64,000 nt of DNA from Candidatus Peribacteraceae bacterium. GTDB lineage: Bacteria > Patescibacteriota > Gracilibacteria > Peribacterales > Peribacteraceae. Numbering within the stretch: position 1 is the stretch's first letter; each line of letters starts with the position of its first letter. Positions 25,258-48,300 of this stretch are shown in pieces. Where the stretch lies: contig JAGOTD010000001.1 of NCBI GenBank assembly GCA_018061945.1, positions 151,050-215,049 on the forward strand. Reading direction: 5' to 3'. The position numbers and the translations under genes are program-made. Below the pieces are notes generated by a model that saw only the letters and a list, made by a program, of their open reading frames with translations, had not been told where the DNA came from and made no database searches.

Positions 25258-28200
25258 TTACTTACACCTCAACTCCAATGCACGCATGATCATGACAATG
25301 GCGTCGGCCCTCGAGACAGGTGTATTGGGTCCGAACCTGCCTGTTAGTTTTCCTGCCGCATCTTTGTAGCCCGTCACAATGCCAAGATTGAAGGCAAGCT
25401 GAATATCGCGCACATAAGGAGATTTTGCCGTGTCAGAGAATGTCGATACTGTCAGCGAAGAATCGGGTGTATACGCAAATGCTTTGAGGATGAGATGAAT
25501 GACAAGCGCACGATTGATGGGGACGTTGGGATTGACCTGTTTAAGGAGGGGTTCTAGTTGCGCCATAGCACTGACGTACCTTGCAAGATCGAGACTGCCT
25601 GCTTCTTTGCCAGCGGCGATGAGAGCCATTTTAGAGACTTGCGCAGCGGTGACACCATCGGAGGATCCGAAGAAACCAGTGAGATTGTTTTTGGCATCTT
25701 TGTAACCAGAGACAATGTTGAGAGCTGCGGCTTTGGCGATGGCATCGGCAAAGTAGGCACCGGGAGGAACATCCGTAAACGATCGTGATGGGGCAGCAGA
25801 AGCAGTGCAGAGTTCTCCGCCATCAGGCGACGAGATCGCAGGGGTGACGGGAGTAATTGTTGGGGTAGAAGAGCTTGCTGTAGATGATGCTCTCGATGAC
25901 GTCACTTGCCCATTTTCATTTCGTGCTTTGGTACTGAAAGTCTGATTGGTGCCTATTGTCAGGTTGCCCGATGGATCTTTGGATTTAACACGGTAGTGAT
26001 AGTCGGTGTCGGGAGTGAGATTTGCGATACTGACGGTATGAGCGGTCGTGTAGACGGTATCAAGTGGACTGGAAGTTCCGTAGGACGGGTGTCTGCCGTA
26101 CTCGATTTGTGAATTCGACACTTCATCGGTCAGCCAACTAATGGTGGCGGTTTTGTCCGTTGTTGCTGCCCTGGTGGCGGAGATAAATGGTGAAGTGGTA
26201 TCAGTTGTCGTGAGCGTCAAGAACGTGTTATTGGTAGATGTTGCCGTGTTGCTCGTCGCGTCGGTAGACACAACTTGATAGTTGTAGGTAGTACCAGAGA
26301 TGAGACTGGAGAGAGTGACACTGTGACTGAGTGTAAGGGCTGGATTGTTTGGTGTTTGGTCTCCGTAGCTTGTCGTTGTGCCGTACTTGACTTGAGTGCT
26401 GGCTGGGATATTGGTAGTCCAACTGATGGTAGCGGTGTTATTGCCGATACCTGTTGCCGTGATGAGGCTTATAACGAGTGGGGCAGTATTGACTGTCGCC
26501 ACAGTCGTGAAGGTATTATTACCCGATACCGCTTCGTTGCCAGCAGCGTCTTTCGAACGGACACGGTAGTGGTAGGTTGTTCCTGCCGTGAGTGTTGAGA
26601 GCCCAACACTATGAGCGGTGAGGAGTGCGGGGTTGAGTGTCGTGGAATTTCCGTAGGCAATGGTCGTGCCGTAATCGATTTGTGTTGTCGCATTCTCATT
26701 GGTTTGCCAGCTGATAGTGGCACTCGATTCGAGTACATTCATCGCGACAATACTCGAAAGCAGTGGCGGAGTGGTGTCGAGGGCGGCAGGAGTGGTGAAT
26801 GTGTTGTCTGTGCTCGTTGCCGTATTGCTTGCACCGTCTGTGGAGATGACTTGGTAATGATACGTGGTGGAGGGACTCAGTCCCGAAAGTGCCTGTGAGT
26901 GGGACAAAATGAGCGACGAGTTGAGCGTTGTCGTATTGCCATAACTGATAGTTGTTCCGTACCTCACTTGCGTCGTTGCGGCTTCGTTGGTTGTCCACGT
27001 GATGGTTGCTCCAGTTGGCGTCGGATTTGCCGCAGTGATGAGACTGAGAGTCGGAGGAGTGGTGTCTGATGTGGGGGCAGAGGAGGATGAGGAAGCGGAG
27101 GAAGAGGGAGGCGGAGGCGGAAGACCGATGGAGGCGCCAAATTCGTAGGCACCTATATCCCACGCTGCTCCCTGCGGACGAAGGGCACCAAGAATATCTG
27201 TTCCGACAGCTGGCAAATTCGCGCCGGCATTGATACCAGCAGCCGTACTCTTAAGACGATAATCGACAGGCGCAGTGGGATTTGCAGGATCATAGGGGAT
27301 CACGAAGAGATCGCTCGGACTTCCAATAGCAATCGAATTATCTTCTTCAGGTGTGTTCGTTCGCCAAGTATTGAGCTCTGAAGCACCACGAGATCCTGCA
27401 AAAATATTGTAATCCGAATCGACGACAGATCCATATTGCACGTAGTCCCAAATATCGGTACTGATAATACCTGCTGTTCGTTGCACGAAAATATTATTGC
27501 GTATTTTTATATTCGCACTCGCTTTGGTCAGGCGTAGTGGCGGACCTACAATATTGTCCACCGTATTGTGGTAGATCTCAATATTCTTGGGAAGTTCTGC
27601 ACCATTTTCCTGGAAAAGAGTGATCCCCTTCTTCTTGTTATCATAGGCAACGTTATTGCGAATAATTGAATCTTGGACACCATCAAAATCCATAGCCGCA
27701 GATCCATTTCTGTACATAATATTATTTTCAAACAGCATATTTTTGATAATTCCATCAGTGACTTGCCCATACGGACTAGATGCACACGAAGAATAAAAAT
27801 CGCTATTAATATGAAAACCGATGTAATTATTGTCATACGCAATATTTCCCTGCACTAGATGATTATCGGCACTATTGCTAATATAGAAGCCATGCTCGGC
27901 AACGGATCGAAAGCCTTCGTTGTTAATGAGTGTTGCATATGGCGTACAGCTGGTAAAAAATCCCCACTTACTATTACGACCAGCAATACTGTTGAGAATG
28001 GTGATGTTGCGACTAAAACGCGTAGAAAATCCGGCACATGTTGCACGAGCACAATCGTAGGCAGTTAAGCCGTCTATGATAATGTATTCCGATTGATGAA
28101 TATTGACGAGCCCGCGAGTGGCTTGCGCATTCTCTTTTATAACCACATTGCTTCCGCGAGGCATTTTGGGCGTGAGAGCTTTAATGGTAATGGGATTTCC

Positions 28201-31110
28201 AGCCTCACCGTGCTTATTGTTCAGGTCAAATTCATAATAGTCACCATCGGCCATCAAGACAGTGTCTCCCGCCCGAAGACTGGAGAGAAGTGCAGCCATC
28301 TGACGACAGGCTGTTTGTAGAGTCAGGCAAGTGTTGGCATCGCTCCCTGTTGGACTGAGGTAAAATATTCGCCCTGGGCCAACGGCAGCTGCTGTGGTAA
28401 ACGTAAAATTTCCCGATACCGAGAGCCCGCCTGCACCGCGTGATTTCACGCGGTAGTGGTAAAATGTTGCGGGGGCGAGTCCCGTTAAAGAGACGCCATG
28501 TGTTGTGACCAAAGCAGGATCTACGATCGTTGCACTCCCATACGCAGTTGTCGTCCCATATTCTACCTGGGTATCAGCAGGAATGCTGGTCAGCCAGGTA
28601 ATTGTTGCGCTGTTACTCCCAATACTTTTGACAGTGACAGTATTGATAAACGGTAGACTCTGTCCAGTAGTAGTGAACGTAAAATTATTTGATGTCGCAA
28701 GTCCAGCTGCATTTTTCGATTTCACACGGTAGTGATACGTGGTGGATGGAGATAGTCCGGTAAGCACTTGGCTATGCGACGTAAGAAGACTGACGTTGAG
28801 TGTTGTCGTAATGCCGTACGCTGTCGTGAGTCCATATTCCACCTGCGTATCAGAAGCGACGTCGGTCGACCACGTAATGGTTGCATCTGTGGCGGTGATA
28901 CCTGTGCTACCAACTGCGCTCATGACAGGTACAGACGGAGCGCTGGGATGGCCGCCTACCACTGGCATCGCTCCAATATCGGTTCCATCGTGAGCGGTTC
29001 CTTTGTAGGCTGTATTCGTTGGTACAAAGCCCGCTTTCACGTAATCAATCAGGGCTTTAATAGTAAAACGAGCATCGTAGCCTGGATCATTGCGCTTCTC
29101 TAATTCTTTGAGCGCTGCATCAATCACCTGGGCATCTGTTCCTGTTTTCCCAAGGCTCCTACTCCACTTTACAATACCACGGTCGCGATCCACAAAGCCT
29201 GGGTCGCCGCCCCAGACATCATTGCTTCCAGGCACAGTGCCACTTGCATACCCCCAGTAGACAGTGCCAAGTGATGTGCCCTGAAACGCTGTCGACGTTT
29301 TTACATTCCAAAATCCATTATTGGTGGTTTGAGCAGGATCAAAGGAGTTCACACTCTTGCATCGAGCTGGATCGGGTTGGTAGATCGCACCTTGAGTTGG
29401 CGCGTTTGGCGACCATGCGAGGTTGGATTTAAGAGAAATAATCTGATTGACCGGTGCGCAGATACCCTCACCCATCTGCACCAGAATGCCGTGGTTTTTA
29501 TTATCGGTCGCTGGCACCGTATTATGTTCTACAATACGTCTTTCAAGAGGATCTCCGCGCGGGGTATTGAGCGTACACGATGGCTGACCCTTAAAAGAAA
29601 AATTATCTGCAGCATCTCCCGTTGAAACAGGGAGCACTATATTGTTGCGCACGGTAGCAATCGCTTCTGCAAGACGAGGTGCGGAACCTGACTGAATACA
29701 ATCACCCGAATCTCCAGCACTATTTTCTGGCGATTCAAAAATATTCCCTTGAATAGTGACACTATAATTTGGCACAACCACATAATGTGGATTTTGCGAT
29801 TTGGCATACAAAAGATAGGAATCATGCAAATCACCAGCCAGGCTCCACTTATCGTTGAGCCCCATTCCCATATTCAATATATTCGAAGCAGATTCCCACG
29901 AATGATTCGTCGCTTCTGGTAAACCAACTGATTGGCCGCTGGCAACATTGGCGACTTGCCATCCTTTGGATACATGCAGAGCGATTTTTTTTGATTGGCC
30001 CATCAGCACATCAAAGATTTTCAATTCTTTTGATTGGCTGGCTGGAACGTGCGCAATACTCACTCCTTTTGATTTGCCGCTAAAAACGTCATAGATTCTA
30101 AATCCTTTTGCCTCAAGCAGCGTCATTCCCTCATCAAACACGCAGCCGATAATTTCGCGTATGCCACTGGTTTTCGCTACTCCATTCGTGATAATCACAA
30201 GATTAGATTTATTTTGAGGACTATTGACGAACGTGGTATTGCGAATGCTAAAAATAGTATCGCCCTTGAATACAGCATTTTTGGTATCGATACGACCACT
30301 GGTATTAAATGTACTGTTTTGAATCTCGATATTCGCAGAATTCATGGAAAAATTAGCACCATCTCCAATACGTACAACATCTGTATAATATAGCTTATAA
30401 CGTGCATACGAAGAGTATGCAGCACTTGCAGGGGGATTGCCTGCCACCTGTAGCATGGGAGAATTGGTGGATCTAAAATAGCTGCGACTGCCTGCTGTTC
30501 CGTTAAAAGTAAGAGTGTTCGCATCTCCGGTATAGCCACGCACCAAATATTGAATGGGCGACGGCGCGCGGGAACTGTCCATTTCGATCCCGTTACCAGC
30601 TGAGACTGTTATATTCGCTCCAGTCGTCGCCGTGCCGGTTGAGATAGTACTTCCACGAATAACGAGTGGCGCATTCACAAGCAAAGAACCATACGTTGAT
30701 GTGCCATTATTACTGAGAGCAATAGCCCAAGCAGTAAGACTAGAAGAACTGATACCCACTGTGACTGGCACATCGACAGTGACAGCATGATTCACGATGA
30801 CCATGTCCCCAATATCGGGTGTATCGCCCGATAGTTTGCCCGTATTGCCATTGGCCGTTTGCGCCGCCGGACTTCCTGGATACAAACCGCTGCCAGCTGC
30901 TTTGCCCCAAACCGTTGGATCGGACCAGTTACCAGCTTTGACTGAGGTAAAGGTTTGCGTTGCTGCTTCCACTGGGGTTTTGCTATCGGTGATGGCAACA
31001 GCCATCCACAAGGCAAAGATACTCGTGGCCGCCCACGCGACTGCAATAGAGGTACGTACTTGCTGCTTTGTACCATGAGGCTTCTTGGTCTTCTTTTTTG
31101 TGTGGGTCAT
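25258..31110 (-). CDS. 1950-aa cell-surface protein: N-terminal TM anchor, G8-like motif, two right-handed beta-helix regions, about six FN3-like domains, Ser-rich linkers, C-terminal SLH domains
   Basis: - TM 'IAVAWAATSIFALWMAVAI'.
- G8-like 'KAGNWSDPTVWG...GDMVIVNHAVTVDV'.
- Pectate-lyase-like 'RIFYLSPTGSDANTC...AGDTVLMADGDYYEF' and many 'NN..' beta-helix rungs.
- Repeated 'ATITW.T...A.TQVEYGTT.AYG......L...H...L.GL.P.T.YHYRV.S'.
- SLH-like 'FTDVPPGAYFADAIAKAAALNIVSGYKD' and 'FSDTAKSPYVRDIQLAFNLGIVTGYKDAAGKLTGRFGPNTPVSRADAIVMIMRAL'. Confidence 0.88.
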   Translation of the reverse strand: MTHTKKKTKKPHGTKQQVRTSIAVAWAATSIFALWMAVAITDSKTPVEAATQTFTSVKAGNWSDPTVWGKAAGSGLYPGSPAAQTANGNTGKLSGDTPDIGDMVIVNHAVTVDVPVTVGISSSSLTAWAIALSNNGTSTYGSLLVNAPLVIRGSTISTGTATTGANITVSAGNGIEMDSSRAPSPIQYLVRGYTGDANTLTFNGTAGSRSYFRSTNSPMLQVAGNPPASAAYSSYARYKLYYTDVVRIGDGANFSMNSANIEIQNSTFNTSGRIDTKNAVFKGDTIFSIRNTTFVNSPQNKSNLVIITNGVAKTSGIREIIGCVFDEGMTLLEAKGFRIYDVFSGKSKGVSIAHVPASQSKELKIFDVLMGQSKKIALHVSKGWQVANVASGQSVGLPEATNHSWESASNILNMGMGLNDKWSLAGDLHDSYLLYAKSQNPHYVVVPNYSVTIQGNIFESPENSAGDSGDCIQSGSAPRLAEAIATVRNNIVLPVSTGDAADNFSFKGQPSCTLNTPRGDPLERRIVEHNTVPATDNKNHGILVQMGEGICAPVNQIISLKSNLAWSPNAPTQGAIYQPDPARCKSVNSFDPAQTTNNGFWNVKTSTAFQGTSLGTVYWGYASGTVPGSNDVWGGDPGFVDRDRGIVKWSRSLGKTGTDAQVIDAALKELEKRNDPGYDARFTIKALIDYVKAGFVPTNTAYKGTAHDGTDIGAMPVVGGHPSAPSVPVMSAVGSTGITATDATITWSTDVASDTQVEYGLTTAYGITTTLNVSLLTSHSQVLTGLSPSTTYHYRVKSKNAAGLATSNNFTFTTTGQSLPFINTVTVKSIGSNSATITWLTSIPADTQVEYGTTTAYGSATIVDPALVTTHGVSLTGLAPATFYHYRVKSRGAGGLSVSGNFTFTTAAAVGPGRIFYLSPTGSDANTCLTLQTACRQMAALLSSLRAGDTVLMADGDYYEFDLNNKHGEAGNPITIKALTPKMPRGSNVVIKENAQATRGLVNIHQSEYIIIDGLTAYDCARATCAGFSTRFSRNITILNSIAGRNSKWGFFTSCTPYATLINNEGFRSVAEHGFYISNSADNHLVQGNIAYDNNYIGFHINSDFYSSCASSPYGQVTDGIIKNMLFENNIMYRNGSAAMDFDGVQDSIIRNNVAYDNKKKGITLFQENGAELPKNIEIYHNTVDNIVGPPLRLTKASANIKIRNNIFVQRTAGIISTDIWDYVQYGSVVDSDYNIFAGSRGASELNTWRTNTPEEDNSIAIGSPSDLFVIPYDPANPTAPVDYRLKSTAAGINAGANLPAVGTDILGALRPQGAAWDIGAYEFGASIGLPPPPPSSSASSSSSAPTSDTTPPTLSLITAANPTPTGATITWTTNEAATTQVRYGTTISYGNTTTLNSSLILSHSQALSGLSPSTTYHYQVISTDGASNTATSTDNTFTTPAALDTTPPLLSSIVAMNVLESSATISWQTNENATTQIDYGTTIAYGNSTTLNPALLTAHSVGLSTLTAGTTYHYRVRSKDAAGNEAVSGNNTFTTVATVNTAPLVISLITATGIGNNTATISWTTNIPASTQVKYGTTTSYGDQTPNNPALTLSHSVTLSSLISGTTYNYQVVSTDATSNTATSTNNTFLTLTTTDTTSPFISATRAATTDKTATISWLTDEVSNSQIEYGRHPSYGTSSPLDTVYTTAHTVSIANLTPDTDYHYRVKSKDPSGNLTIGTNQTFSTKARNENGQVTSSRASSTASSSTPTITPVTPAISSPDGGELCTASAAPSRSFTDVPPGAYFADAIAKAAALNIVSGYKDAKNNLTGFFGSSDGVTAAQVSKMALIAAGKEAGSLDLARYVSAMAQLEPLLKQVNPNVPINRALVIHLILKAFAYTPDSSLTVSTFSDTAKSPYVRDIQLAFNLGIVTGYKDAAGKLTGRFGPNTPVSRADAIVMIMRALELRCK

Positions 31111-31145: not shown

Positions 31146-31186
31146 ATTGACTATCTTTAGAACATAACTAAACCATAAAAGAACGC

Positions 31187-31223
31187 AGAATGTAGAACGA
31201 TAGAATTCTACGTTCTACATTCT
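31187..31223 (-). terminator. Hairpin downstream of the LamG gene (probable terminator); a related copy is at 32612-32641
   Basis: 13-bp perfect stem AGAATGTAGAACG / CGTTCTACATTCT with an 11-nt loop. T-rich sequence follows on both strands. Confidence 0.5.
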
Positions 31224-31333
31224 TTGTTTGGCTATTTACACCTCAACTCCAATCGCGCTCATGCTCAGCGATTGTCCGGCCACTGCAAAGACGCTCCCCC
31301 AAGAGCCGCGATAGCTATCCGAGAGGAGAGCAA

Positions 31334-32041
31334 TTACGCGGTAATATCGTAGGAGTAGACAATAACTTCCAAAATCTGACCCAAAAACGGCCGCACCAAA
31401 CCGGCTGACGTGACAGTGCCGCCAACAACAGTGTTATCGGCACCCGATACGTGTCCGAACCAGGCAATGGTACCGATGTTCGAGACAGTGAGTGGATTTT
31501 CCTCTGTACCGTTGAGACTAACGTAATAATCCGTCCCATCGTAGACGACGGCGATCGAATATGTAGTGGAAACAAGGAGCGTCGTGAAACCGTTCACTGT
31601 ATGCTTGGTACCGCCGGCATTGGATTCGATGTACATGTTTCCAGCCGAGCTGATACCAATTTCAAACCAGTTGTTGGCAGTGCCGTTATCGGCGCTCGAA
31701 AACAATACTTGATCGCCACGAGTGGCAAATGCCGTCGCGCCGGTTGTAAAAACAATCAGAACCGTACCCACCGTATGACTGAGTGTGTTGGAGGATACTA
31801 GGTAGTCGTCGCTGCCATCGAACAGAATGCTTGGTACCGCTGTTTGTAGAAATGGACGACTGCCGGAAGTGCTCTGCAATCCACTGTAATTGTCGCCGTT
31901 TTGATTATGCCAATTACCGATAGGATCGTTGTTGGCGGTTGCGGCAGTTGTTCCAGCGCTGTTTTGATACACACCGGCATTCGCTCTCAGATTAATAACA
32001 GGGCTACTAGTTGCCGCTAAAATTGCTGGCTGAATGCGCAT
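31334..32041 (-). CDS. LamG/concanavalin-A-like lectin-domain protein, no signal peptide (left copy)
   Basis: 'SGSRPFLQTAVPSILFDGSDDYLVS...NNWFEIGISSAGNMYIESNAGG...YSIAVVYDGTDYYVSLNG' is the typical LamG_3 pattern. It is about 70% identical by eye to the 33863..34570 product. Confidence 0.75.
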   Translation of the reverse strand: MRIQPAILAATSSPVINLRANAGVYQNSAGTTAATANNDPIGNWHNQNGDNYSGLQSTSGSRPFLQTAVPSILFDGSDDYLVSSNTLSHTVGTVLIVFTTGATAFATRGDQVLFSSADNGTANNWFEIGISSAGNMYIESNAGGTKHTVNGFTTLLVSTTYSIAVVYDGTDYYVSLNGTEENPLTVSNIGTIAWFGHVSGADNTVVGGTVTSAGLVRPFLGQILEVIVYSYDITA

Positions 32042-32050
32042 GTGGGGATT

Positions 32051-32431
32051 TTATGAAGTAACCGTACTAGCACCTTTCACCACCCGCTGCTTGGAATTGG
32101 TCTCGAGAATACAGGCAACGTCACCACTATCGAGCGTCACGTTGGTCGAACCCGGGCCGTCGATAGTGACCGTACTGCCAGAATCGTTGACAATCTCTAC
32201 CTCAAAACCGTTACCCAGCGTCCCCACTGCAGGGAGAGAGAACGTGAGCGACGCAGTCGCCACAAAACGCTTGCCGCTGTCGGCACTTGTGAAAGTGTAG
32301 CCGGAGCTTTTGGTCACTTCCACAACTGCACCAATGTTTTCACCGGTCGATGCATGACCGACTTGCAGGAATGTATTGAGAACATCTCCCCATGTACCAC
32401 TGTCACCGCCGGATGTTGGAAGTCTAGCCAT
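32051..32431 (-). CDS. 126-aa protein with a phage-tail-fibre-type N-terminal motif (left copy)
   Basis: 'MARLPTSGGDSGTWGDVLNTFLQVGHASTG' follows the '..P..GD..WG..LN.FL.V.H' motif seen at the N-termini of tail-fibre/beta-helix proteins. It is about 85% identical to the 33475..33855 product. No signal peptide. Confidence 0.75.
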   Translation of the reverse strand: MARLPTSGGDSGTWGDVLNTFLQVGHASTGENIGAVVEVTKSSGYTFTSADSGKRFVATASLTFSLPAVGTLGNGFEVEIVNDSGSTVTIDGPGSTNVTLDSGDVACILETNSKQRVVKGASTVTS

Positions 32432-32674
32432 AAAGAGAAAGGAGAGAAGTGATCGAATGTACTATTTGGAAAAATAGTATAGAAAATGTGCTATCTATAG
32501 CAATAAAATTACGCAATATTCACCTGTGAAAAATACCTTTATATTGCAGATACGCTATTTGAAAAAAGTATTGCTTTAAAAAATTCGAATCGCAGAAAGG
32601 ATGCAGGGTACAGAATGTAAAACGATAGAATCCTACATTCTACTGTTTTTACCTCGATGACACAGAGGATGTCA

Positions 32675-33160
32675 TCATGATCTAACAGCACTTTTGGCCG
32701 ACGATTTCATCGCCGGCATAGCCGAACTGTTTGTCGATGCCGGAGTAGCAGCCGGAGCCTGGAGCTGAACTGGAACAACATCCAGAATAATATTCTTTGT
32801 CGGGTCGTAGAGCAGTGCGCGCGTTGGTGTCACAATGAGGTAGTCACCGTTTTTTGCGAAATTGTAGAAACTGTTCTTCTCTTTTAACTTGTCCACATCC
32901 ACAATCTGGGCGACGGTTGGGTCAATATCACCAGGAATGGAATACAGCTTACGTACTTTGTCGACAATGCCTTTGGCCATTTCCACATTTTGCGGATTAT
33001 CGCCGCCTGCCTGCAGTTGATCGGCTTGCACTTTTGCCTTCTGTAATTCCTTCGCATAGTCCATGCGTTGCTTATAATTGACGAAAGCAAAAGTACCCAA
33101 GCCAAGTACAAGAGCAATGACCAGAATTTTTCCGAACCCGCCTGACGAAGTTGGAGACAT
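32675..33160 (-). CDS. Small single-pass membrane protein (162 aa) at the centre of the inverted duplication
   Basis: From the ATG at 33160: 'MSPTSSGGFGKILVIALVLGLGTFAFVNY', one TM helix followed by a soluble domain. The track start at 33247 adds 29 unlikely codons. Confidence 0.55.
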   Translation of the reverse strand: MSPTSSGGFGKILVIALVLGLGTFAFVNYKQRMDYAKELQKAKVQADQLQAGGDNPQNVEMAKGIVDKVRKLYSIPGDIDPTVAQIVDVDKLKEKNSFYNFAKNGDYLIVTPTRALLYDPTKNIILDVVPVQLQAPAATPASTNSSAMPAMKSSAKSAVRS

Positions 33161-33474
33161 AAAAATGCGTACGAAATAAAGAAAAGAAGCAAATGAATTA
33201 TACACATGGCAAAGGGTCTTGCAATGCAGGCGTGTAGCTTCATACACTTATTTGACGCACAAGACACTATAATCTTAGGAAGAATAATCCCTGCGGAAGA
33301 ACCGCGTGCATAGTATTTTTTTTCTACAATCGACAGAGCTGAAAATGCTTCTTTTACAAGCGAAGATATTGATGGGCAATATATTGCTTTTAAAGTAATT
33401 GATTCATAAAAAAACATTCGTATACTTGATCAGCTATTGATGCATTTCGTTCAATACTACCTTCATTTATTTTT

Positions 33475-33855
33475 ATGGCACGACTTCCGGTAAGTGGCAG
33501 CGACAGTGGCACATGGGGAGATGTTTTGAATACTTTCTTGCAAGTCGGTCATGCATCGACCGGTGAAAACATTGGTGCGGTTGTGGAAGTGACTAAAAGC
33601 TCCGGCTACACTCTGGTTGCAGGCGATAGCGGCAAACGTATTGTGGCAACAGCTGCCATTACTATTTCTGTGCCGGCTGTCGCTACACTAGGTAATGGTT
33701 TTGAAGTGGAGATTGTCAATGATTCCGGTGGCACTGTGACGATCGATGGACCAGGATCGACCAATGTCTCGCTCGATAACGGCGACGTCGCCTGCGTTCT
33801 GGAGACGAATAGTAAACAACGGGTCGTGAAAGGGCCTTCTACTATTGTTTCGTGA
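33475..33855 (+). CDS. 126-aa protein with a phage-tail-fibre-type N-terminal motif (right copy)
   Basis: 'MARLPVSGSDSGTWGDVLNTFLQVGHASTGENIGAVVEV...'. Paralog of 32051..32431 on the opposite strand. Confidence 0.75.
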   Translation: MARLPVSGSDSGTWGDVLNTFLQVGHASTGENIGAVVEVTKSSGYTLVAGDSGKRIVATAAITISVPAVATLGNGFEVEIVNDSGGTVTIDGPGSTNVSLDNGDVACVLETNSKQRVVKGPSTIVS

Positions 33856-33862
33856 TTCTCCT

Positions 33863-34570
33863 ATGAGAGCATTTTCTGCCGTTGTGGCATCGGCGAGAGC
33901 TCCATTCATGCATTTTAAAGCGATCAATGGCTTGTTTCAGAGTTCGGCAGGCACGACGCCCGCAACCGCCAACAACGATCCTGTCGGCTATTGGCATAAC
34001 AATAATGGCGATAGTTACAATATTTCGCAGTCCACAACGGATAGTCGGCCACTTCTGCAGACCGCACTTCCGAGCGTTCTCTTTGACGGCACGAATGACT
34101 ATCTAGCGTATGCCGGCTCGACCAGTACGACAGTCGGAACAGCGATCATCGTGTATAAAACCGGCGCCACTGCTTTTTCCAGTCGCGGCGCTCAGGTGCT
34201 GCTTTCCAGTGCCGATACAGGAAGCGCCAACAACTGGTTTGAAATCGGCATCAGCTCGGCTGGGAAAATATACATCGAATCCAACGCCGGCGGCACCAAG
34301 AATACCGTCACCGGTTTGACGATTCTTTCCGTATCGACTGCCTACTGTGTGGCTGTTATGTACGATGGAACAGATTACTATGTCAGCATCAATGGAACCG
34401 AGGAAAATCCGCTCATTGTCTCGAACGTCGGCACCATTGCCTGGCTGGGTAACGTATCAAGTCCTAACAATATCGTTCTGGGCGGCACTGTCACATCGGC
34501 CGGGCTCGTGCGCCCGTTTCAAGGCGAAATACTTGAAGCGGCATTGTATGCGATAGATATTTCCTCGTAG
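33863..34570 (+). CDS. LamG/concanavalin-A-like lectin-domain protein (right copy)
   Basis: The ATG at 33863 lies 7 nt after the upstream stop, mirroring the 9-nt gap in the left copy. 'TDSRPLLQTALPSVLFDGTNDYLAY...NNWFEIGISSAGKIYIESNAGG'. Confidence 0.75.
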   Translation: MRAFSAVVASARAPFMHFKAINGLFQSSAGTTPATANNDPVGYWHNNNGDSYNISQSTTDSRPLLQTALPSVLFDGTNDYLAYAGSTSTTVGTAIIVYKTGATAFSSRGAQVLLSSADTGSANNWFEIGISSAGKIYIESNAGGTKNTVTGLTILSVSTAYCVAVMYDGTDYYVSINGTEENPLIVSNVGTIAWLGNVSSPNNIVLGGTVTSAGLVRPFQGEILEAALYAIDISS

Positions 34571-34611: not shown

Positions 34612-37023
34612 ATGGCAATAAGTCTTGTAACACAGGGTGGAACCGGTAATACAAAAACCGGCTCGTGGTCATCGGGGGGAACCGATAATCCTCAATACAG
34701 CTCCACCCGTTCTTTTGCCCAATGCACCGGAACTGCCACGCCTACCCATACGCAACTCTATAAATTCGGCGGCGTTGGCGGCCAAGGAACATTGACAGCC
34801 GGAACCACCTATCTGCTTGCCATCACTATTCCGACATTGAGCAACCGTCAGGCTGATCAGGTAATTAAAGTGTACGACAGCGATGGAACGACCGTGCTTT
34901 GTAACAGCACCATGAACGGTCAGGTTGCGTTTAGTGATTTTACCTATGCTACCGGTGCAGCATTCGGCAGTCCTACATGGTTATGGCTCGGACAATACAC
35001 GCCGTCGTCCAATGCATCCGGTGCGTCGCTTACTATCTATACGGATAACTCCGGCGCCGATTCCACAAAATACGCAATCGGTGATGCTGCCTATATACAG
35101 CTAGCAACCGATAGCTACACTCCTGTATACGGCAGTTGCCAGAGCGGAAACTGGAGTAGCGCCAGCACGTGGAAATTCGGAGTGCCACCCTCAAGTGCTC
35201 TGGTGACAATCGGCTATGGCCACACGGTGACAGTCGATACGAATACCACGCACGGCTCGAGTCCTACTGCCGGTAACGATGCAGTCAATATCCAGAACCT
35301 GGCCAGTTTGATTGTGGCTGATGGCGCAACTTTTACCTGCCGTGGTGGAGTAAAGCTCACTACTACCTCTGGTGCTTCGCGTGTAGCCGGATATTTTCCG
35401 CTGCAAATTGGAACAGGTACGAATGGTGGCGGTGCAATATTTGAATTCGATGCGTCTCAGGCTGTGTCACCATCAACAGCTATCTACACCATCGGTCCAA
35501 GCAGCAGTGCTCAAACAAATGCATGGGTAAAAATGCGTGGAACTCAAGGCAACCGCGCCCAAGTGAGATCCAATGCGTCCGGAGCCAATGGCCGATTTTC
35601 TCTGCGTAGTTTTGTACAAAACAGTACAGGCGGCCTTGGGATGCTTGATGCACAGGATTGTGATTTTATACGCCTAGGAAGCTCCACTTTGCCTGCGTTC
35701 GAAAATGCACTCCGTCTGTCAGGAGAAGGATTCAGCATGGTGCGTTGTTCGGTACAATATTGCTGGGGTGGCGGTGGCGGGGCGGATTACGCTATTGGTG
35801 TATCTTTCAATGGTGATGGCACCTATGCCACTTTTACCGACGTGACATTTTCCAACACACAAGCCACGTACTCTCTCGCATTGACGCGGGCGTCGGGCAC
35901 GACACTTGGCACTATCACTGTCCAGCGATGTGTGTTTGATAAAGTTGTCGCCTTCTTCTTAACCTCCTGCTTTGGGACCGCCTATTTCCAAGACAACATT
36001 TACAATCATCAAGTACGCTATACCAATGCCACCAGTACGCCTGCACTCGATACAGGCCATTTCTTTTATATGCGGGCAGCCAACGACGGCGTTCCGTCAT
36101 ATTCATTGAGCGGCAATATGACCAATGCCTACTTTCTGGCCGATAAAACGGATGATTCCAACCCCAGCACAACGGGCAATCCTCATTATGTAGGAGCCAT
36201 TGCCGGATTCACACTGACTGGTGCTGTATTTGATTACATTGGTGAATTTGGTTTGGATGTCGGCGATACATTTACCGCCGATGGCGGAACATGCATCATG
36301 CGTCATTCTATCATTCTAAAAGGCACATCCAGCACGAATGCACCTTCAGCTGGAACAATATGGTTAATGACTGGAATATCTGCAACATTAACCCTTGAAC
36401 ACAATACCGTATACTGTTCACATGGTGCGCTCAGCGGTCTCAATATGGGACACGATGCAGCAGCTGGAACTGCAGGTTCTATTCCATCGGTGAAGTCCAA
36501 TATATTTCATTCTCCAAACAGCACGGTCTACGCTATTTCCAGTGACACGCAATCAACTATTGTCAACGACTTCATTACACCCAGCGGCATTACCGCCAAC
36601 ACCTTTAACGGAGTGGGAACCGGTACCAGCAACATTATCAATGGCGTGTCCGGACAATCAATTGTCGGCATGCAAAGCCTGAAACTGTCGGCACAGCCGA
36701 CCGGGAATATCACAACGGCACCCGCTTTTGTAGATTCGACCGTGAACTTCCTCTCGTGGGCGGTATCGCAAGGCTGTACCGGCACCAATGACCAAAAGCG
36801 CGATGCCGCACTCGCGCTTATCGCCGCTACACCGACGCTCGTCCGTACGAGTCTCTTGCCGCATATTCGTGACGGATTTCGGACAACAGCAACCGCACTG
36901 CGCACTGCAGGTCACGATAGTGCCCCCATCGGCGCGTGTAACTATGGCAAAACCACACGCACACTTACGGCTCTCACTGCCTTCCGCACGAATGTGAATA
37001 CGCGATACAGCATAAGCGTGTAA
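34612..37023 (+). CDS. 803-aa signal-less beta-helix protein with a G8-like motif (tail-spike/fibre-like)
   Basis: N-terminus 'MAISLVTQGGTGNTKTGSW', with no signal or TM. 'QSGNWSSASTWKFGVPPSSALVTIGYGHTVTVDTNT' is G8-like. Gly/Thr/Asn-rich beta-helix-like repeats follow. It is the third gene of the + strand operon that starts at 33475. Confidence 0.75.
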   Translation: MAISLVTQGGTGNTKTGSWSSGGTDNPQYSSTRSFAQCTGTATPTHTQLYKFGGVGGQGTLTAGTTYLLAITIPTLSNRQADQVIKVYDSDGTTVLCNSTMNGQVAFSDFTYATGAAFGSPTWLWLGQYTPSSNASGASLTIYTDNSGADSTKYAIGDAAYIQLATDSYTPVYGSCQSGNWSSASTWKFGVPPSSALVTIGYGHTVTVDTNTTHGSSPTAGNDAVNIQNLASLIVADGATFTCRGGVKLTTTSGASRVAGYFPLQIGTGTNGGGAIFEFDASQAVSPSTAIYTIGPSSSAQTNAWVKMRGTQGNRAQVRSNASGANGRFSLRSFVQNSTGGLGMLDAQDCDFIRLGSSTLPAFENALRLSGEGFSMVRCSVQYCWGGGGGADYAIGVSFNGDGTYATFTDVTFSNTQATYSLALTRASGTTLGTITVQRCVFDKVVAFFLTSCFGTAYFQDNIYNHQVRYTNATSTPALDTGHFFYMRAANDGVPSYSLSGNMTNAYFLADKTDDSNPSTTGNPHYVGAIAGFTLTGAVFDYIGEFGLDVGDTFTADGGTCIMRHSIILKGTSSTNAPSAGTIWLMTGISATLTLEHNTVYCSHGALSGLNMGHDAAAGTAGSIPSVKSNIFHSPNSTVYAISSDTQSTIVNDFITPSGITANTFNGVGTGTSNIINGVSGQSIVGMQSLKLSAQPTGNITTAPAFVDSTVNFLSWAVSQGCTGTNDQKRDAALALIAATPTLVRTSLLPHIRDGFRTTATALRTAGHDSAPIGACNYGKTTRTLTALTAFRTNVNTRYSISV

Positions 37024-37110: not shown

Positions 37111-39663
37111 CTAGCTGCCATATCCCTGCTCCAGGAGTCTTCCGAGGAGTGTCGCTACTTCGGCACGGTTGATCGGACTGTTGGGACGGAAGGTGCCGTC
37201 GGGATTGCCTTTGACGATGCCCATGCCCTTGAAAGTATTGATGAGGGGATCGCTGGTATCCGAGAAGAAGACACCAATGCGCGGATCGGGCTGAACGCCG
37301 AGAATGTCGGCCATGGCGTGAATCACCTGCCCGCGCGTCATGGGGGTAAAGACATTCAGATCTTTCGTGTACAGCGAGGGACTTTTCGCCTCCAGTGCAG
37401 CAACGAAGGGGGCTGCCCATGTGTTTTGCGCCGATGCATTGACTGGTGTTGATCCAGACAGATTCATCAATTGCGCGAGCATCTTGGCGACTTCGGCATA
37501 CTGCACATCGCGGCTTGGACGATACAAGCCGAGTGGCTTGCCGTTTGCATCGTTGTAGCCGCTCACAATATTCAGATCTACCAGTATGTCGACAGCCGGA
37601 GCAAAGTAATCGGTAATGAAGACATCTTTGAAGATGACTTGTGTACTGTTGATGGTTTTGGCGAGGAAGCCGGAGGAGGAAGTAAGTTCGGATGGTGTTT
37701 TGAGGACCATTTGACGACGAGGATTGAGTGATGACGACGTAGAGCTTGCGGCAGCTTTCAATGCGGCTTGAGCAGCAAGGTAGTCGGCAAGGGCTTTTTC
37801 GCGCAGTGCTTTTTCATTACTGGACGAAGAAAGTGACGAGCGCGACCAAGAAGAGACAGAGCCAGTTGGCAGAGAGGAGGAGGAAGCTTGGACGAAGGGG
37901 ATGGAAGAGCTGGATGAGCTAGAGCTTGGAAGCGAGGAGGATGCAGAGGAACTCGATAGGCTCGAAGCAGCGCTCGATGACGCTGCGCTGTGCACAGCCC
38001 CGACTCGCTGCCGACAGGCAACGTAATCGAAGCTCAAGCGGTAGTTCTGCGAAAAGGGCTTTCCTTGATCGAGCCACGCATATTGCACACCGGCAGCAAA
38101 AATTTGATCACCTTGTGTGAGATATTTTGGATCCCCTGTTTTTTCGTACAGCCAGCAGTAGGTTGGAGCAATAAGGAGGTTTAAATCTGGCGCGGCAGTA
38201 GTGCAACTAGTGTGATCTTGAAAATCTTGATAACAAAACCCTGTTCCACGCCACATGTTGGCCCAAATATAATCTGCACCTCGTTGAATACCAGGAAGTA
38301 TACGCAGGTCACCAGTCTTTTTTTCGTAGTCCATCAATGCATTTGTCGTGAGTGCAAACATGAAAGGCGCAATACGATAATAATTCCCTGTCTGAAACCA
38401 TTGATCAAGATGGCCAAGCGCCGATGTTACTTGGTCTGCAAGAAGTGGCATGGCACCGAAGCCAGCAGTTTCGTTGTCCATTTTTGCATCGATAGCATAC
38501 GCTGCTTCACGACTGTAAAATTCATTAATATTAGAACTGAGTGCTGTATTGCCGCGTGCACCATTCTTCGCGAGCAAATTAACAGCATTCAGCGAATCTG
38601 CGTCCCCTGTTTTCTGCCAATCGAGAAGAAGACCGCGTGTAAACACACGATAGCCTTGTATTGCGCCATTGTTCACGAAGACATGGCTCCTGTAGACAGC
38701 CTTCACATACTGCGCGCATGTTGTCGCCCACACCGGATCCTTTAGATACTCCGCCATCTGATAGTACACACGAATGCCATCGTAAAACCACACGCTGCCA
38801 TCCCACGTACCTTGAAGATTGATGAGCGACTGATTACAGTGCTTTGTGCCATATTTCTTCATATTCGATTCCCATAGTGCTAACTGCGGAATGGCTGGTG
38901 GAGGATTGATGTATGGCTGTGGCGTGACTCGCACTGGCGCTGGATCAACAATAAGAGGAAGGATGATGCTATGAGCTTTAGCAGCATATGTTCCCGTTAC
39001 CTGAAACGAGTAATTGCCAACCGGCGCATTCGGCGCAGCAGTAACGCGCAGCGATTCAACACCAAACCACTCATCGACAGCACTGACTGTAATCCCGGGC
39101 GGAACATTGTCGAAGGTATATTTTATAGTGAGGTTCGATGCGCCTCCAAGCTGACGAGCACGCACGCTAAAAAGTGCATAACTCCCCTGAAAGACATGGC
39201 TAGGGCTCGACGGATTAACGAGATCAAAATCTACAGGAGCGGTTTTATCGAAAAGCGTAAGAGCACTAAGATCGTCTTGTGCTTTTCCTATTCCTCCAAC
39301 GCCATCTGTTGATACAGCGCGAATGTAATACAGCGTCGAAGGATCCAGTCCGCTGACCGTCACGGCATGAGTCGTTGTCATCGTTTGATCGACAGGTGTC
39401 GATATATCGAATTTTGTTCCCCATGCACTATATTGTACTTGCGATGTCGCTGGCACATTGGTCACCCAATTGAGCGTAAAGCTCGAAATGGTAATATTGG
39501 AAACGCTGATAGACGTAAGAGTAATGGGAGTAGCAGCAAACGTTTGTATTTTTGTTGGCTGCAATAAAGATGGATACACCAGCACTGCTGCAAATACGAT
39601 CATTAACTGACTGAAGATGACGGCGGCAACTTGGACATGGCGTGGATGTGTCTGTTTCTTCAT
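37111..39663 (-). CDS. SLH-anchored surface protein, paralog 1 of 3 (TM anchor, FN3, Ig-like, helical-repeat central domain, Ser-rich linker, 3 SLH)
   Basis: - The ATG at 39663 gives 'MKKQTHPRHVQVAAVIFSQLMIVFAAVLVY', aligning with the other two paralogs; the track TTG start is at 39684.
- FN3 'ITISSFTLNWVTNVPATSQVQYS'.
- SLH 'FKDVFITDYFAPAVDILVDLNIVSGYND' and 'FFSDTSDPLINTFKGMGIVKGNPDGTFRPNSPINRAEVATLLGRLL'. Confidence 0.85.
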   Translation of the reverse strand: MKKQTHPRHVQVAAVIFSQLMIVFAAVLVYPSLLQPTKIQTFAATPITLTSISVSNITISSFTLNWVTNVPATSQVQYSAWGTKFDISTPVDQTMTTTHAVTVSGLDPSTLYYIRAVSTDGVGGIGKAQDDLSALTLFDKTAPVDFDLVNPSSPSHVFQGSYALFSVRARQLGGASNLTIKYTFDNVPPGITVSAVDEWFGVESLRVTAAPNAPVGNYSFQVTGTYAAKAHSIILPLIVDPAPVRVTPQPYINPPPAIPQLALWESNMKKYGTKHCNQSLINLQGTWDGSVWFYDGIRVYYQMAEYLKDPVWATTCAQYVKAVYRSHVFVNNGAIQGYRVFTRGLLLDWQKTGDADSLNAVNLLAKNGARGNTALSSNINEFYSREAAYAIDAKMDNETAGFGAMPLLADQVTSALGHLDQWFQTGNYYRIAPFMFALTTNALMDYEKKTGDLRILPGIQRGADYIWANMWRGTGFCYQDFQDHTSCTTAAPDLNLLIAPTYCWLYEKTGDPKYLTQGDQIFAAGVQYAWLDQGKPFSQNYRLSFDYVACRQRVGAVHSAASSSAASSLSSSSASSSLPSSSSSSSSIPFVQASSSSLPTGSVSSWSRSSLSSSSNEKALREKALADYLAAQAALKAAASSTSSSLNPRRQMVLKTPSELTSSSGFLAKTINSTQVIFKDVFITDYFAPAVDILVDLNIVSGYNDANGKPLGLYRPSRDVQYAEVAKMLAQLMNLSGSTPVNASAQNTWAAPFVAALEAKSPSLYTKDLNVFTPMTRGQVIHAMADILGVQPDPRIGVFFSDTSDPLINTFKGMGIVKGNPDGTFRPNSPINRAEVATLLGRLLEQGYGS

Positions 39664-39700
39664 AGGTTTTTTGTATGAAATCAATCTGGATATTATACCA
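39664..39700 (-). promoter_or_regulatory. Extended -10 promoter and conserved leader
   Basis: The minus strand reads TGGTATAAT-ATCCAGATTG-ATTTCATACAAAAAACCT-ATG. Confidence 0.5.
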
Positions 39701-39765
39701 TAAAAACGCCGTTGTTTAAATGATGTGAGACGGCAAAAGACGGAGATGGGAAGTGGAAGAGGTAT

Positions 39766-39836
39766 TGTAAGTAAGGTATGTAAGGTAGGTGATGCGGATT
39801 TTTACCTACCTTACCCACTATACGTACCTTACTTCC
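39766..39836 (-). terminator. Nested hairpin terminator after paralog 2
   Basis: Inner stem GTAAGGTAGGT / ACCTACCTTAC (39779-39789 with 39803-39813). Outer GTAAGGTA / TACCTTAC arms. A homologous structure lies at 42551-42610. Confidence 0.6.
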
Positions 39837-39841
39837 TGTAA

Positions 39842-42451: not shown

Positions 42452-42490
42452 GAAGTGAATATTGGTATGAAATCTTCATATTATACCATA
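42452..42490 (-). promoter_or_regulatory. Extended -10 promoter and conserved leader
   Basis: The minus strand reads TGGTATAAT-ATGA-AGATTTCATACCAATATTCACTTC-ATG. Confidence 0.5.
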
Positions 42491-42550
42491 AAAACGCCGT
42501 TCTTTAAATGATGTGAGACGGTAAAAGACGGAGATAGCAACAGGCGAAAG

Positions 42551-42610
42551 TATAGTAGGTACGGTACGCAAGGTAGGTAATGCGGATTTTTACCTACCTT
42601 ACCTACTATA
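42551..42610 (-). terminator. Nested hairpin terminator after paralog 3
   Basis: Outer stem TATAGTAGGT / ACCTACTATA (42551-42560 with 42601-42610). Inner stem AAGGTAGGTA / TACCTACCTT. Confidence 0.6.
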
Positions 42611-42629
42611 CGTACCTTACTTCCTGTAT

Positions 42630-45367: not shown

Positions 45368-48300
45368 TTATTGTTGCGGAGTGATGAATTTACTCACGAT
45401 ATAACCCTGTCTGTCTGTACCAAAAAGAATACGACTCCACTCGCCTATTATCTCGAGCACAGTCACCGGCGTGTTTGCAGATAGCTGAGCAATAATTTTT
45501 GCTGTTACACTTGGCTCTATTCGCACATTCACAGCCCGGGTCGCCGTGAAATCGGTCACCGTGGATGCGGTTTCATCTGAAGCGGCATGCAGCTTCTGCC
45601 TGTCGATCTCTAAGGATCGCACTAAAAGCACTGCCGCCTCTGCCCGACTGACCGGTTCATCCGCCTTCACAATATTGAGCGACATGCCCGCTTCGTCCCG
45701 GTAGCCTGTCACCAGTCCAAGTGTATATCCAGTTGCAATGGCTTTGGCGTAGAGATCCGACGGACGCACATCGGTAAACGGATGATTGTACTGCACTATA
45801 GGGACGCCGAGTGTTTCCAGAATAATCTGCACCACTGCTCCTCTGGGAGCAGAAGTATGCACATCTAACCGCGGGCCATACAACGATGTTTTTGATTCTA
45901 TCGCTGCAACCCACGACTCTGCCCATGTATTGCGAGCGCTTCTATTGCGAGGTGCCTGTGTTGACTGCTCCAGCTGCATGAGCAATACCACCATTTTTGC
46001 AATCTGCGCGTAGGTCACAGGATCATTTGGACCAAACACATTGGCTGTAGTGCCATAGCCAGATACCACATCTTTTTGGAACAACATTTCAATAAACGGT
46101 GCATACCATGCATCATGGGCAATATCGGTAAAGCTGGTCCCCGACGATTGACCACTCTCTGGCGCCGAAGAATGATCTACTGCAGGCGCACTGCTGGAAG
46201 CACCGCTCGAAGAGCCGCTGGTTCCGATCGTCGATAGTGGCGAGTACGTCCCCGGTCGTCGGGATCCTCCTCCTGACGGCTGCTTTGCAGAACTTGAGCT
46301 ACTACTCGAACTGCTGCTACTGCTTGAAGATGCTGTGACAACTTGGCTGAGTATCGTTGAAGTGGATCCACGGTAGTACGAACTGCCGCTGTATGTGACG
46401 GTAATAGGATGTGTTCCAGCCGTCAGAGAGGAAGTGGAAAGCCTGCCCGATCCGCTGCCAAGTGTCGCCGTACCGATACTCACCGCATTGTCGTAGAACG
46501 TAAGACCTCCTGTTGCACTCACAGGGCTCACAGTCGCCGTAAATGTAACGCTCTGTCCTACGATTGACGGATTGACTGATGAGACAACCACGAGCGAGCC
46601 CGTGTTCGTAACCGTAACCAGAACGCTCGACGATGTCTGCGAATTGCCGGCCGCGTCGCGGGCAGTTGCCGTAAGAGTGTGTGAACCGAGTGTCGCGCCG
46701 GTAGTACTCCACATAATGGTGTACGGAGCAGCTGTGTCTTCGCTTTGTAAATTTGATCCATCCAACTTGAATTGCACGCCGACAACAGCCACGTTGTCCG
46801 AGGCAGATGCACTTACCGTCGTGCTACCCGAGACTGTCGCTCCAGTTAAAGGAGTGGAAAGCGAAATGCTTGGCGCAGTCGTATCGGCGGAAGTAGTAAA
46901 CGTGGCATTTGAGCCTGAGCCGGTAAAGCTGGCCAAATCGACAGACTTTACTTTGAAATTGTAGAGCGTCGATGGAGCGAGTCCGGTGATTCTGGCGGTA
47001 TGACTTGTCACGTATGAACCCGATAGCGTGGTCGAAGAACCGTAGGCTGTTGTTGTGCCATAGTCGACTTGCGATGTACTCAGCTCGTTGGTTGTCCACG
47101 TGACGGTTGCACCGCTAGACGTAATATTGCTGGTTGCAACAGACGACACGACAGGGGGCAACATGGGGATAGCGCCCATGTCGGGACTGCCGTCGGTTGG
47201 CGAACCGGCGCCGCGCAGCTGTGTGTTGGTCGGTTCATACCCTGCGCGTACCCACTGCAGCAAGTTGGCAACTGTATAGCGCGCATCGTAGCCGGTTGCG
47301 TCGTTACGGGACATAAGTTCGGCAATGGCATTTGCCGCCGTTCCAGGTCCACCAAGTGCGGCGTCCCAGCTTGCGATATTGCGCGTTGAATCCGCAAATT
47401 GTGGATTGGCTTCCAGGTCGTTCGCGCCTGGGGTGTAGCTGCTCCACTCAAGATTGTAGTAACGCCCGGCACCAGTTGTCAGGTTATAATGTGTGCTGTA
47501 GTCCAAGTCGGTTACAGCGTCGGGCACGTTGTTGTTGGCACCCGAATCACCGAAAATATAACCACCGGCTGAGCCGGCAGTGCTCATACAAATATTATTG
47601 CGATACGCCGCAATAAGGTCTGCCTTTCCGGCGTACGTTTCTCCGATGTACGAACACGTGACAGTGCGAGGAATAACAATCGTATTGTTACGGAAAATAC
47701 TGCCGGAAGAAGTGGACGCACCGCCACCCGACACGAAAGCGGATGTCCTGGTTTTGCCTGTAGCGGAAATGACCACGTTTCCCGACGCCGTCACTTTGCC
47801 CGTCGACGGAACAAAGATAATGTCCCCGTCATCGGTACCGCCGCTAAAGTCGGTTTCAAAAACGTTGTCTCGTACAATCACGTTTGGATTAGAACTTCCT
47901 ATAGCAGTCGAGTTAATAAAGTGAGGATTATCTGTGGTTGCATACCAATAGTTACTGACAAGTGATTCTGTCGTATGCGGACTGGTAAAAACGCTACCGG
48001 CCACAGTCGGAGCAATGAGGTTATTGGAAAAGACTCTCAGGTTAGCTACGGATCCCGCGCGCGCAATGTAGCGACGGAATATGTTATTGGTCACCGTCCA
48101 GCCGGGCCCGTAAATGTTGATGGTTTTATCTACGATGTTGCCCGTAAAATTGCGCTGGCCAGATGGACTGCTGACAGTGCCGGGAAGTTGAATTGTTGCC
48201 GAATTCAGCGAGTTCGACACCGTCACGTTATTGATAGCAAGATCGTCGCTGCTGTTATCGGTCCCAGCTAGAGTGATCTGGCCACAGTTATCTATGGAGC

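Follow-up and report, generated by a model that had tools for sequence, protein, structure and literature searches.

An inverted pair of tail-fibre-like gene cassettes on a bacterial chromosome: retained paralogues, 5′ gene conversion and a candidate adaptor with tagged partners

Modular phage receptor-binding proteins (RBPs) combine a conserved N-terminal anchor or adaptor with exchangeable depolymerase or lectin modules joined through short N-terminal peptides, as in the multi-depolymerase Klebsiella phages. Invertible tail-fibre segments are described in phage Mu (the G segment, with Gin) and P1 (the C segment, with Cin), alongside plasmid shufflons. Among cellular systems, the phoD-tatAd-tatCd operon of Bacillus subtilis links a substrate to its own twin-arginine translocation (Tat) genes, and scaffolds anchored by S-layer homology (SLH) domains display proteins at the surface, as in cellulosome-type anchoring. 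Candidate phyla radiation (CPR) bacteria are thought to live attached to other cells, and to our knowledge few factors with which they attach or attack envelopes have been described apart from type IV pili. Here, a 64,000-nucleotide (nt) chromosomal stretch, referred to as the window, was analyzed for an inverted duplication at 31334-34570 in which two arms, each encoding a 126-amino-acid (aa) protein and a LamG protein, diverge from a central spacer. With moderate confidence, the two arms are interpreted as old, diverged paralogous surface glycan-binding cassettes of a Peregrinibacteria-like (CPR) bacterium, built from phage RBP parts. The duplication itself, a pair of paralogues that has been retained and shows 5′ gene conversion, is the less remarkable part of the finding; the more interesting result is the conserved system to which it belongs, in which the predicted 126-aa adaptor is accompanied by partners carrying a short N-terminal tag.

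The four open reading frames (ORFs) of the duplication were found where an earlier note on this DNA had placed them:

31334-32041, minus strand: LamG (Laminin_G_3) protein, copy a, 235 aa, Pfam PF13385, with the degenerate N-terminal tag MRIQPAILAA
32051-32431, minus strand: 126-aa protein, copy a (MARLPTSGGDSGTWGDVLNTFL...), an ORF with an N-terminal tailspike-type motif and a tail-fibre-like beta domain
33475-33855, plus strand: 126-aa protein, copy b, an ORF with an AlphaFold2 (AF2) model
33863-34570, plus strand: LamG (Laminin_G_3) protein, copy b, 235 aa, Pfam PF13385, with the N-terminus MRAFSAVVAS

The two 126-aa proteins were 85% identical in amino-acid and 76% in nucleotide sequence, and the two LamG proteins 66% and 68%, respectively (all ungapped), with zero indels in either pair. 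The earlier estimate of ~85% for the 126-aa pair therefore stands, and that of ~70% for the LamG pair is lowered to 66%. The LamG pair matched by BLASTP with E = 2.5e-113, and this resemblance is thus not due to chance. As had been stated, most nucleotide differences fell at third codon positions (57 of 90 in the 126-aa genes, 128 of 224 in the LamG genes) and the intergenic gaps were 9 nt in the minus arm and 7 nt in the plus arm. The longest exact match between the arms was 40 nt (32328-32367 and 33539-33578), one fewer than the 41-nt island of identity given before. A repeat search of the window recovered three collinear inverted-repeat blocks between the arms:

31366-31992 and 33912-34538: inverted repeat, 627 nt, 71% identical
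32055-32282 and 33624-33851: inverted repeat, 228 nt, 73% identical
32294-32450 and 33456-33612: inverted repeat I3, 157 nt, 85% identical

Both copies are kept by selection, as the earlier note had proposed. Between the arms, three methods put the ratio of nonsynonymous to synonymous substitution rates (dN/dS) at 0.10-0.15 in both gene pairs, and dS, at 0.9-2.0, was at or near saturation. Consistent with this result, a related strain, X4, from a run of a bioreactor metagenome, retained both arms intact with mostly synonymous changes. In its minus-arm LamG gene, 26 differences were listed, of which 19 were at third positions and six were conservative amino-acid changes, with zero disruption. 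Divergence of X4 was mosaic: the minus-arm LamG gene was ~3.7% different at the nucleotide level (window 31336-32097), and the 3′ end of the plus-arm 126-aa gene together with the first half of its LamG gene was <0.5% different (window 33614-34165). A decaying duplicate, in which one arm is redundant and heading for loss, would suit the single-copy state of the nearest relative, L006, but both arms consist of intact ORFs of equal length, dN/dS is about 0.1 at saturated dS, and both are conserved in the second strain. The undisrupted arms of X4 and the dN/dS values together are taken to exclude decay, and this explanation is hardly credible.

The 5′ ends of the two 126-aa genes have been homogenized by intragenomic gene conversion, and the arms still exchange sequence there. 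In codons 1-45, dS between copies a and b was 0.44, compared with 2.9 in the remainder of the gene; across the same codons, dS between either copy and the L006 orthologue was 1.5-1.6. At residues identical in both copies, the same codon was used 31 times and a different one 10 times in codons 1-45, compared with 25 and 39 elsewhere (Fisher p = 3e-4). Gene conversion at the spacer-proximal ends is concluded because dS is low between the arms and high in comparison with L006. Nucleotide-level constraint was rejected as the cause of the conserved 5′ end, since the same codons are saturated relative to the L006 orthologue. The tracts were as follows:

32294-32450, minus strand: conversion tract of arm a, spanning 19 nt upstream and codons 1-46 and holding the 40-nt exact repeat at 32328-32367
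33456-33612, plus strand: conversion tract of arm b, 85% identical to the arm-a tract and holding the 40-nt exact repeat at 33539-33578

The likeness of the arms ended ~20 nt before each ATG, and the description of their upstream regions as unrelated was borne out. A 20-nt pyrimidine- or T-rich stretch before each 126-aa start codon (…CTCTCCTTTCTCTTT-ATG and …CCTTCATTTATTTTT-ATG; 32432-32452 and 33455-33474) was the sole upstream part common to both, and no recognizable Shine-Dalgarno sequence was present there before either gene. The spacer between the arms, described as ~1 kb with one single-pass membrane protein, indeed measured 1,043 nt and contained one such gene and, from a consensus scan, a putative promoter-like site for each arm:

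32503-32476, minus strand: putative promoter-like site of the minus arm, TTGCTA-16-TATACT
32675-33160, minus strand: spacer gene (ORF from 33160 to 32675) for a 161-aa single-pass membrane protein
33399-33426, plus strand: putative promoter-like site of the plus arm, TTGATT-16-TATACT, located 49 nt upstream

The 161-aa protein had no Pfam or NCBIfam match. It formed a singleton cluster and had no tblastn match in 17 related loci, and was rejected as a part of the module.

The position of the conversion tract, exactly at the spacer-proximal ends, indicates that the arms pair there. This would be expected of a recombinational switch in which crossover within the 157-nt 5′ segments inverts the 1-kb spacer, giving recombinase-independent phase variation, as would the 40-nt perfect inverted repeat and the unrelated upstream regions with a promoter-like site each. 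Such a switch is nonetheless quite unlikely. If it did operate, improbable as that is, the arms would trade their unrelated upstream regions through inversion, along with the direction in which the membrane-protein gene lies, and hence which promoter drives which cassette. However, conversion needs no reciprocal inversion, perfect identity is limited to 40 nt, and in either orientation each arm keeps its full set of genes. Pfam detected no recombinase domain in the scanned window ORFs of >=120 aa, so that the layout can be called recombinase-free, as it had been, at that sensitivity; the sole recombinase-related match was a protein with an HTH_28/IS630-type helix-turn-helix, 28 kb away. Of 16 public metagenome runs, all in the form of Logan contigs, four were examined, and their contigs stopped at the 40-nt repeat, which left the orientation of the spacer unphased. 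Moreover, two copies at one locus were seen in the window alone among about 30 loci.

The 126-aa protein belongs to no Pfam or NCBIfam family. Its AF2 model, built with 25 homologues, had a predicted local distance difference test (pLDDT) score of 82 and consisted of an N-terminal helix and a beta sandwich at residues 37-121. The best Foldseek match to this model in the PDB was a Pseudomonas phage protein, the Pa223 capsid spike (E = 8.6e-4, TMq 0.55), and 163 matches at E<=1e-3 were obtained in BFVD, a database of predicted viral structures, where the named matches were tail fibre, tail collar, lambda Stf repeat, Mtd N-terminal and minor tail proteins. An exhaustive profile search, which returned 3,523 proteins at E<=1e-3, divided the protein into two parts. 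Residues 37-126 are a domain found alone, at the C-terminus of other proteins or in up to six tandem copies, and residues 1-35 are a separate N-terminal motif, M-x-R-L-P-x-x-G-x-D-x-x-S-W-G-x-x-L-N-x-F-L-Q-V-G-H. The N-terminal 30-59 residues matched the N-termini of 478-501-aa proteins encoded in tail-gene neighbourhoods of viral contigs, and one of these proteins contained Pfam Beta_helix, a right-handed beta-helix. Matches by sequence in other collections were few: the cultured-phage database gave a single weak match, to a 'putative tail fiber protein' of a Microcystis phage, PHROGs gave weak tail-fibre matches alone (E about 3e-3 to 7e-3), and a PDB sequence search with the 126-aa profile gave nothing below E = 0.09. 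The label 'tail-fibre-like' used in the earlier note is upheld by the 163 viral Foldseek matches, the N-terminal tailspike motif and the occurrence of LamG with a ~600-aa neighbour in phage structural regions.

The 126/127-aa family was compact, with 188 matches at 65-87% identity that form one cluster at 50%. When one genome per species was scanned, only 12 contained it, from the CPR (Peregrinibacteria, Paceibacterota, Parcubacteria, Saccharibacteria), Planctomycetaceae/Pirellulales and Rhodoplanes; the complete Bradyrhizobium sediminis genome carries it too. The 126-aa protein may act as a conserved adaptor.

The nearest relative, L006, is a metagenome-assembled genome of an uncultured Candidatus Peregrinibacteria whose FtsH falls in the same 90% cluster as that of the window. 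Its module is single-copy and contains three genes, for proteins of 126, 235 and 729 aa, with ordinary cellular neighbours (genes for aldo-keto reductase, flavodoxin and MFS transporter proteins among them). Partners of the 126-aa gene were counted over 27 non-redundant loci. In 21 of the 27, the 126-aa stop codon was followed 2-20 nt later by an ORF that begins with the tag M-x-[RLT]-[HR]-[SP]-G-[IV]-[IL]-[AG]-[AG], and in two further loci the tagged ORF was directly upstream of the 126-aa gene. The tagged partners were LamG proteins, SASA or GDSL esterases, a polysaccharide lyase, a CBM6-like protein and a small protein of 84-113 aa. In the SASA partner of locus L007, the catalytic GQSN motif occurs from residue 23, and the tag is therefore too short for a cleavable signal peptide.

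Two further elements recurred around the module. A tatC gene, often with tatA, lay 0.3-5 kb from the 126-aa gene in 18 of ~22 informative loci (L001, L007-L011, L013-L016, L022, L025, L032, L034, L035, L040-L042) and on the P0122 contig, and the TatC and 126-aa proteins fell into the same groups by pairwise identity. In 15 loci the module was adjoined by a gene for a wall-anchored protein, in which a signal peptide precedes a YGxGxYGxGxYGG motif, then fn3/Big_7 domains and PG_binding_1 (SLH in one). On the P0122 contig, named for its LamG protein of the window clade (P0122, 65% identical), the order was PG_binding_1, tatC, tatA, a 367-aa gene, the 126-aa gene and LamG. As in the window, neither tatC nor a YG-motif protein was found near the L006 module; the only match to the YGxGxYG pattern in the window was in a stop-interrupted frame, and no wall protein of this kind was present. 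A full-text literature search found no paper on the 126-aa family or its synteny.

Two of these loci were of interest in their own right. L001 (Bradyrhizobium sediminis CP076136.1, 878851-899318) is an island with 126-aa, GDSL, tatA, tatC and PG_binding_1 genes, together with many small unknown genes and genes for DUF932, SduA_C (Shedu-like), ORC/Cdc6-like, SMC-like ATPase and MmeI-type restriction enzyme proteins. The island appears mobile or defence-related, and its host is cultured and tractable. L022 (55490-75870 of a 143,984-nt contig) holds the next-closest 126-aa homologue on a long contig, 79% identical. Insertion sequence (IS) elements surround its module, as do three reverse transcriptases of the group II intron type; an IS lies between the module and tatC-tatA, and the adjacent YG-motif protein is SLH-anchored, not PG_binding_1-anchored.

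The recurrence of tatC beside the module, the congruent clustering of TatC with the 126-aa protein, the co-occurring wall-anchored protein and the precedent of the B. subtilis phoD-tatAd-tatCd operon would all fit a dedicated Tat cargo, in which the N-terminal peptide [RH]-[SP]-G-[IV]-[IL] serves as an unconventional TatAC targeting motif. That explanation is doubtful. It would have the folded adaptor-enzyme complex exported and passed to the YG-motif wall protein, and would need the window lineage to use tatAC elsewhere on the chromosome, steps that appear no less doubtful. The N-termini, however, contain no twin arginine, hydrophobic core or cleavage region, and the catalytic motif of the L007 SASA protein leaves no room for the last two. 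In addition, the window and L006 are without a nearby tatC, and adjacency by itself is no proof of export.

From their Pfam PF13385 scores (28.6 bits for copy a and 31.3 bits for copy b, with a cutoff of 27.6), the two LamG proteins are classed as ordinary Laminin_G_3 members of the concanavalin A-like lectin superfamily, in a family of 41 clusters. NCBIfam gave no match for any module protein, and the cultured-phage database gave none for LamG. Phage relatives were found on four contigs that carry portal, head-tail connector, capsid, Mu-F, terminase or SU10-adaptor genes. In each, a LamG relative (53-61% identical) is followed by a 587-620-aa homologue of an 803-aa protein encoded next to the plus-arm LamG gene, and the phage LamG homologues are without the N-terminal tag. 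On one phage contig, L028 (8824-15537; dUTPase, endonuclease VII, SU10 adaptor), Sec-like signal peptides were seen on the LamG homologue and on neighbours of 134, 262, 607 and 967 aa, which is unusual for virion proteins.

The 803-aa protein bears on the extent of the module. The two genes that had been described as the module are indeed mirrored, but the unit is larger, since the 3′ flanking gene of each arm is homologous as well. The features at these ends, and a further paralogue, were:

28966-30954, minus strand: third-gene homologous region of the minus arm, residues ~53-715 of a 1950-aa protein (gene 25258-31110), by BLASTP
31186-31225, minus strand: predicted intrinsic terminator hairpin (dG -27.2 kcal/mol, z = -8.0) followed by a U-run, closing the minus arm after LamG
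34612-37023, plus strand: 803-aa third gene of the plus arm, 41 nt after LamG, with a 'GNWSxxxTW' motif at residue ~179
45368-49282, minus strand: 1304-aa third-gene paralogue, by BLASTP to the L006 729-aa protein (E = 2e-30) and Pfam

The 803-aa protein had three database matches in total. It has a beta-strand-rich middle and a helical C-terminus, is without a signal peptide, and yielded a poor AF2 model (pLDDT 44). It was 29% identical end to end to the 729-aa third protein of L006 (E = 2e-51) and ~27% identical to residues ~53-715 of the 1950-aa protein, which was also matched by BLASTP to the L006 729-aa protein and to phage proteins of 591-620 aa. By Pfam, the 1950-aa protein contains an N-terminal signal or transmembrane (TM) segment, six fn3-type repeats, a right-handed beta-helix and SLH anchors. 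The 1304-aa paralogue has a signal peptide, the homologous domain (residues 23-696), and fn3, Big_7, Big_3_5, SLH and SH3 domains. Identity between the arms thus dropped along the cassette, from 85% in the 126-aa protein through 66% in LamG to 27% in the third protein. The arms are also asymmetric in predicted transcription, the minus arm being terminated after LamG by the predicted hairpin and the plus arm continuing to the 803-aa gene. The hairpin at 31186-31225 is repeated directly at 32611-32650 (40 nt, 85% identical), between the spacer membrane-protein gene and the minus-arm 126-aa gene, where the second copy folds weakly.

Phage relatives for all three gene families, and products without signal peptides as expected of virion parts released by lysis, would suit a remnant in which the arms are the receptor-binding cassettes of a degraded prophage, tailocin or satellite and work only with a particle. 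This is very unlikely. No capsid, portal, terminase, sheath, tail tube, baseplate, integrase or lysis gene was found in the scanned ORFs of the 64-kb window with Pfam and PHROGs. The window is chromosomal, with genes for an NAD-dependent DNA ligase (LigA), FtsH, adenylosuccinate lyase (PurB), an LD-carboxypeptidase and a type II/IV secretion ATPase, and a tRNA-Leu, the only Rfam match in the window; the phage or tailocin setting implied by the earlier note is thereby not supported. The modules of CPR relatives likewise lie between dnaB, cysS, groEL and pil genes of CPR chromosomes, tatC synteny is stable and the two genes cluster congruently by pairwise identity, and two window paralogues have the third-gene domain joined to Sec signals and to SLH wall anchors. 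Neither the phage/tailocin frame nor the idea of a switch was supported by what could be tested.

Surface proteins, along with the housekeeping genes, surround the duplication. From 25 to 62 kb, the window contains a series of very large fn3/Ig/SLH surface proteins. Three tandem paralogues of 857, 869 and 877 aa (37111-45263, minus strand) each have an N-terminal TM or signal segment, fn3 (Pur_ac_phosph_N-type) and a C-terminal SLH domain, and a 4271-aa ORF (49528-62343, minus strand), rich in LVIVD repeats and with matches to beta-propellers, has the look of a giant surface protein. At 11094-15194, a 7TM_transglut membrane protein that carries a PKD domain precedes a protein in which a sugar-transfer-associated ATP-grasp domain and a MATCAP-like carboxypeptidase domain are fused; together the two look like a peptide- or protein-modification system.

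The favoured interpretation of the arms as surface glycan-binding cassettes can be set out as a working model. In this model, the near-invariant 126-aa protein would serve as constant adaptor, the counterpart of a phage tailspike's anchor part, and LamG would dock onto it by the N-terminal tag and supply the lectin. The large, beta-rich 'GNWS..TW' third protein would contribute another surface, for binding or for enzymatic action. Conservation falls steeply with distance from the adaptor, and the partners found in other lineages are glycan-active; both point to variable specificity on a constant mount. In the minus arm, the domain of the third protein would be held covalently within an SLH-anchored, Sec-targeted wall protein, and the plus-arm protein would not; given that the minus-arm third protein is predicted to be wall-anchored and the plus-arm protein is not, the two cassettes would most likely differ in glycan-binding specificity, presented for example towards a host cell or a polymer. 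On this model, the 126-aa and LamG proteins would be located at the surface, the tag would bind the adaptor, and the target would be a glycan.

Several observations weigh against this interpretation. No recognizable signal peptide was found on the 126-aa, LamG or 803-aa proteins, and tblastn found neither tatA nor tatC in the 64-kb window, in contrast to the relatives with these genes beside the module. The N-terminal tag is most degenerate in the window's own two LamG copies. In a neighbour-joining tree these copies were not exclusive sisters, copy a grouping with L006 and others, so that either they separated as early as the genus-level divergence or one of them came separately, and for LamG a second acquisition at the same locus may have taken place instead of local duplication. 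The third genes of the two arms (27% identity) were no closer to each other than to the third paralogue 11 kb away. They are thus not demonstrably from the same duplication event, and their homology may reflect family expansion.

A bolder reading is offered tentatively and with low confidence, namely that a surface-display system as yet undescribed, horizontally mobile and made from phage tail-fibre parts, has the 126-aa protein as its constant core. The components of such a system, should this less probable reading apply, would be a co-evolving TatAC, a wall-anchored YG-motif stalk, the 126-aa adaptor and interchangeable glycan enzymes or lectins recognized via a peptide of ~10 residues. The pair in the window could then possibly represent a two-cargo version whose 5′ ends recombine and may even invert the promoter-bearing spacer.

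If the favoured interpretation as surface glycan-binding cassettes is true, a phage-RBP-like adaptor whose esterases, lyases and lectins can be exchanged would make a direct candidate for recognizing the host or processing its envelope. The pattern extends across phyla (CPR, Planctomycetes, Alphaproteobacteria), combines the 126-aa protein and the peptide tag with linkage to tatAC and the wall protein, and is genetically testable in Bradyrhizobium.

In comparison with the systems introduced above, the window resembles the Mu G and P1 C segments and the shufflons in having two inverted sets of fibre-like genes with shared 5′ sequence. It differs in that no invertase gene or short crossover sites accompany the arms, that the arms diverge from a central spacer and do not lie inside a segment behind a single promoter and constant exon, and that each arm is complete, with its own start codon and an unrelated upstream region. 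The likeness to phoD-tatAd-tatCd lies in the position of tatA and tatC directly beside the module in relatives and in their congruent clustering; unlike that operon, the module proteins carry no twin-arginine signal peptide, and the window has no tatC. As in SLH-anchored scaffolds, wall-anchored (SLH or PG_binding_1) fn3/Ig stalks stand beside exchangeable carbohydrate-active proteins with a short common module, but there are no cohesin or dockerin domains and the analogy is architectural only.

With modular phage RBPs, the differences are that the module lies in cellular chromosomes without virion genes and is linked to tatAC and a wall-anchored protein, that the constant part is a free-standing protein of 126 aa, 65-87% identical across phyla, and that docking is here a proposed step. 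Shared with them are a constant part with a tail-fibre-like fold and a tailspike N-terminal motif, variable glycan esterase, lyase and lectin partners, a short N-terminal peptide on otherwise unrelated partners, and conservation that falls steeply away from the anchor.

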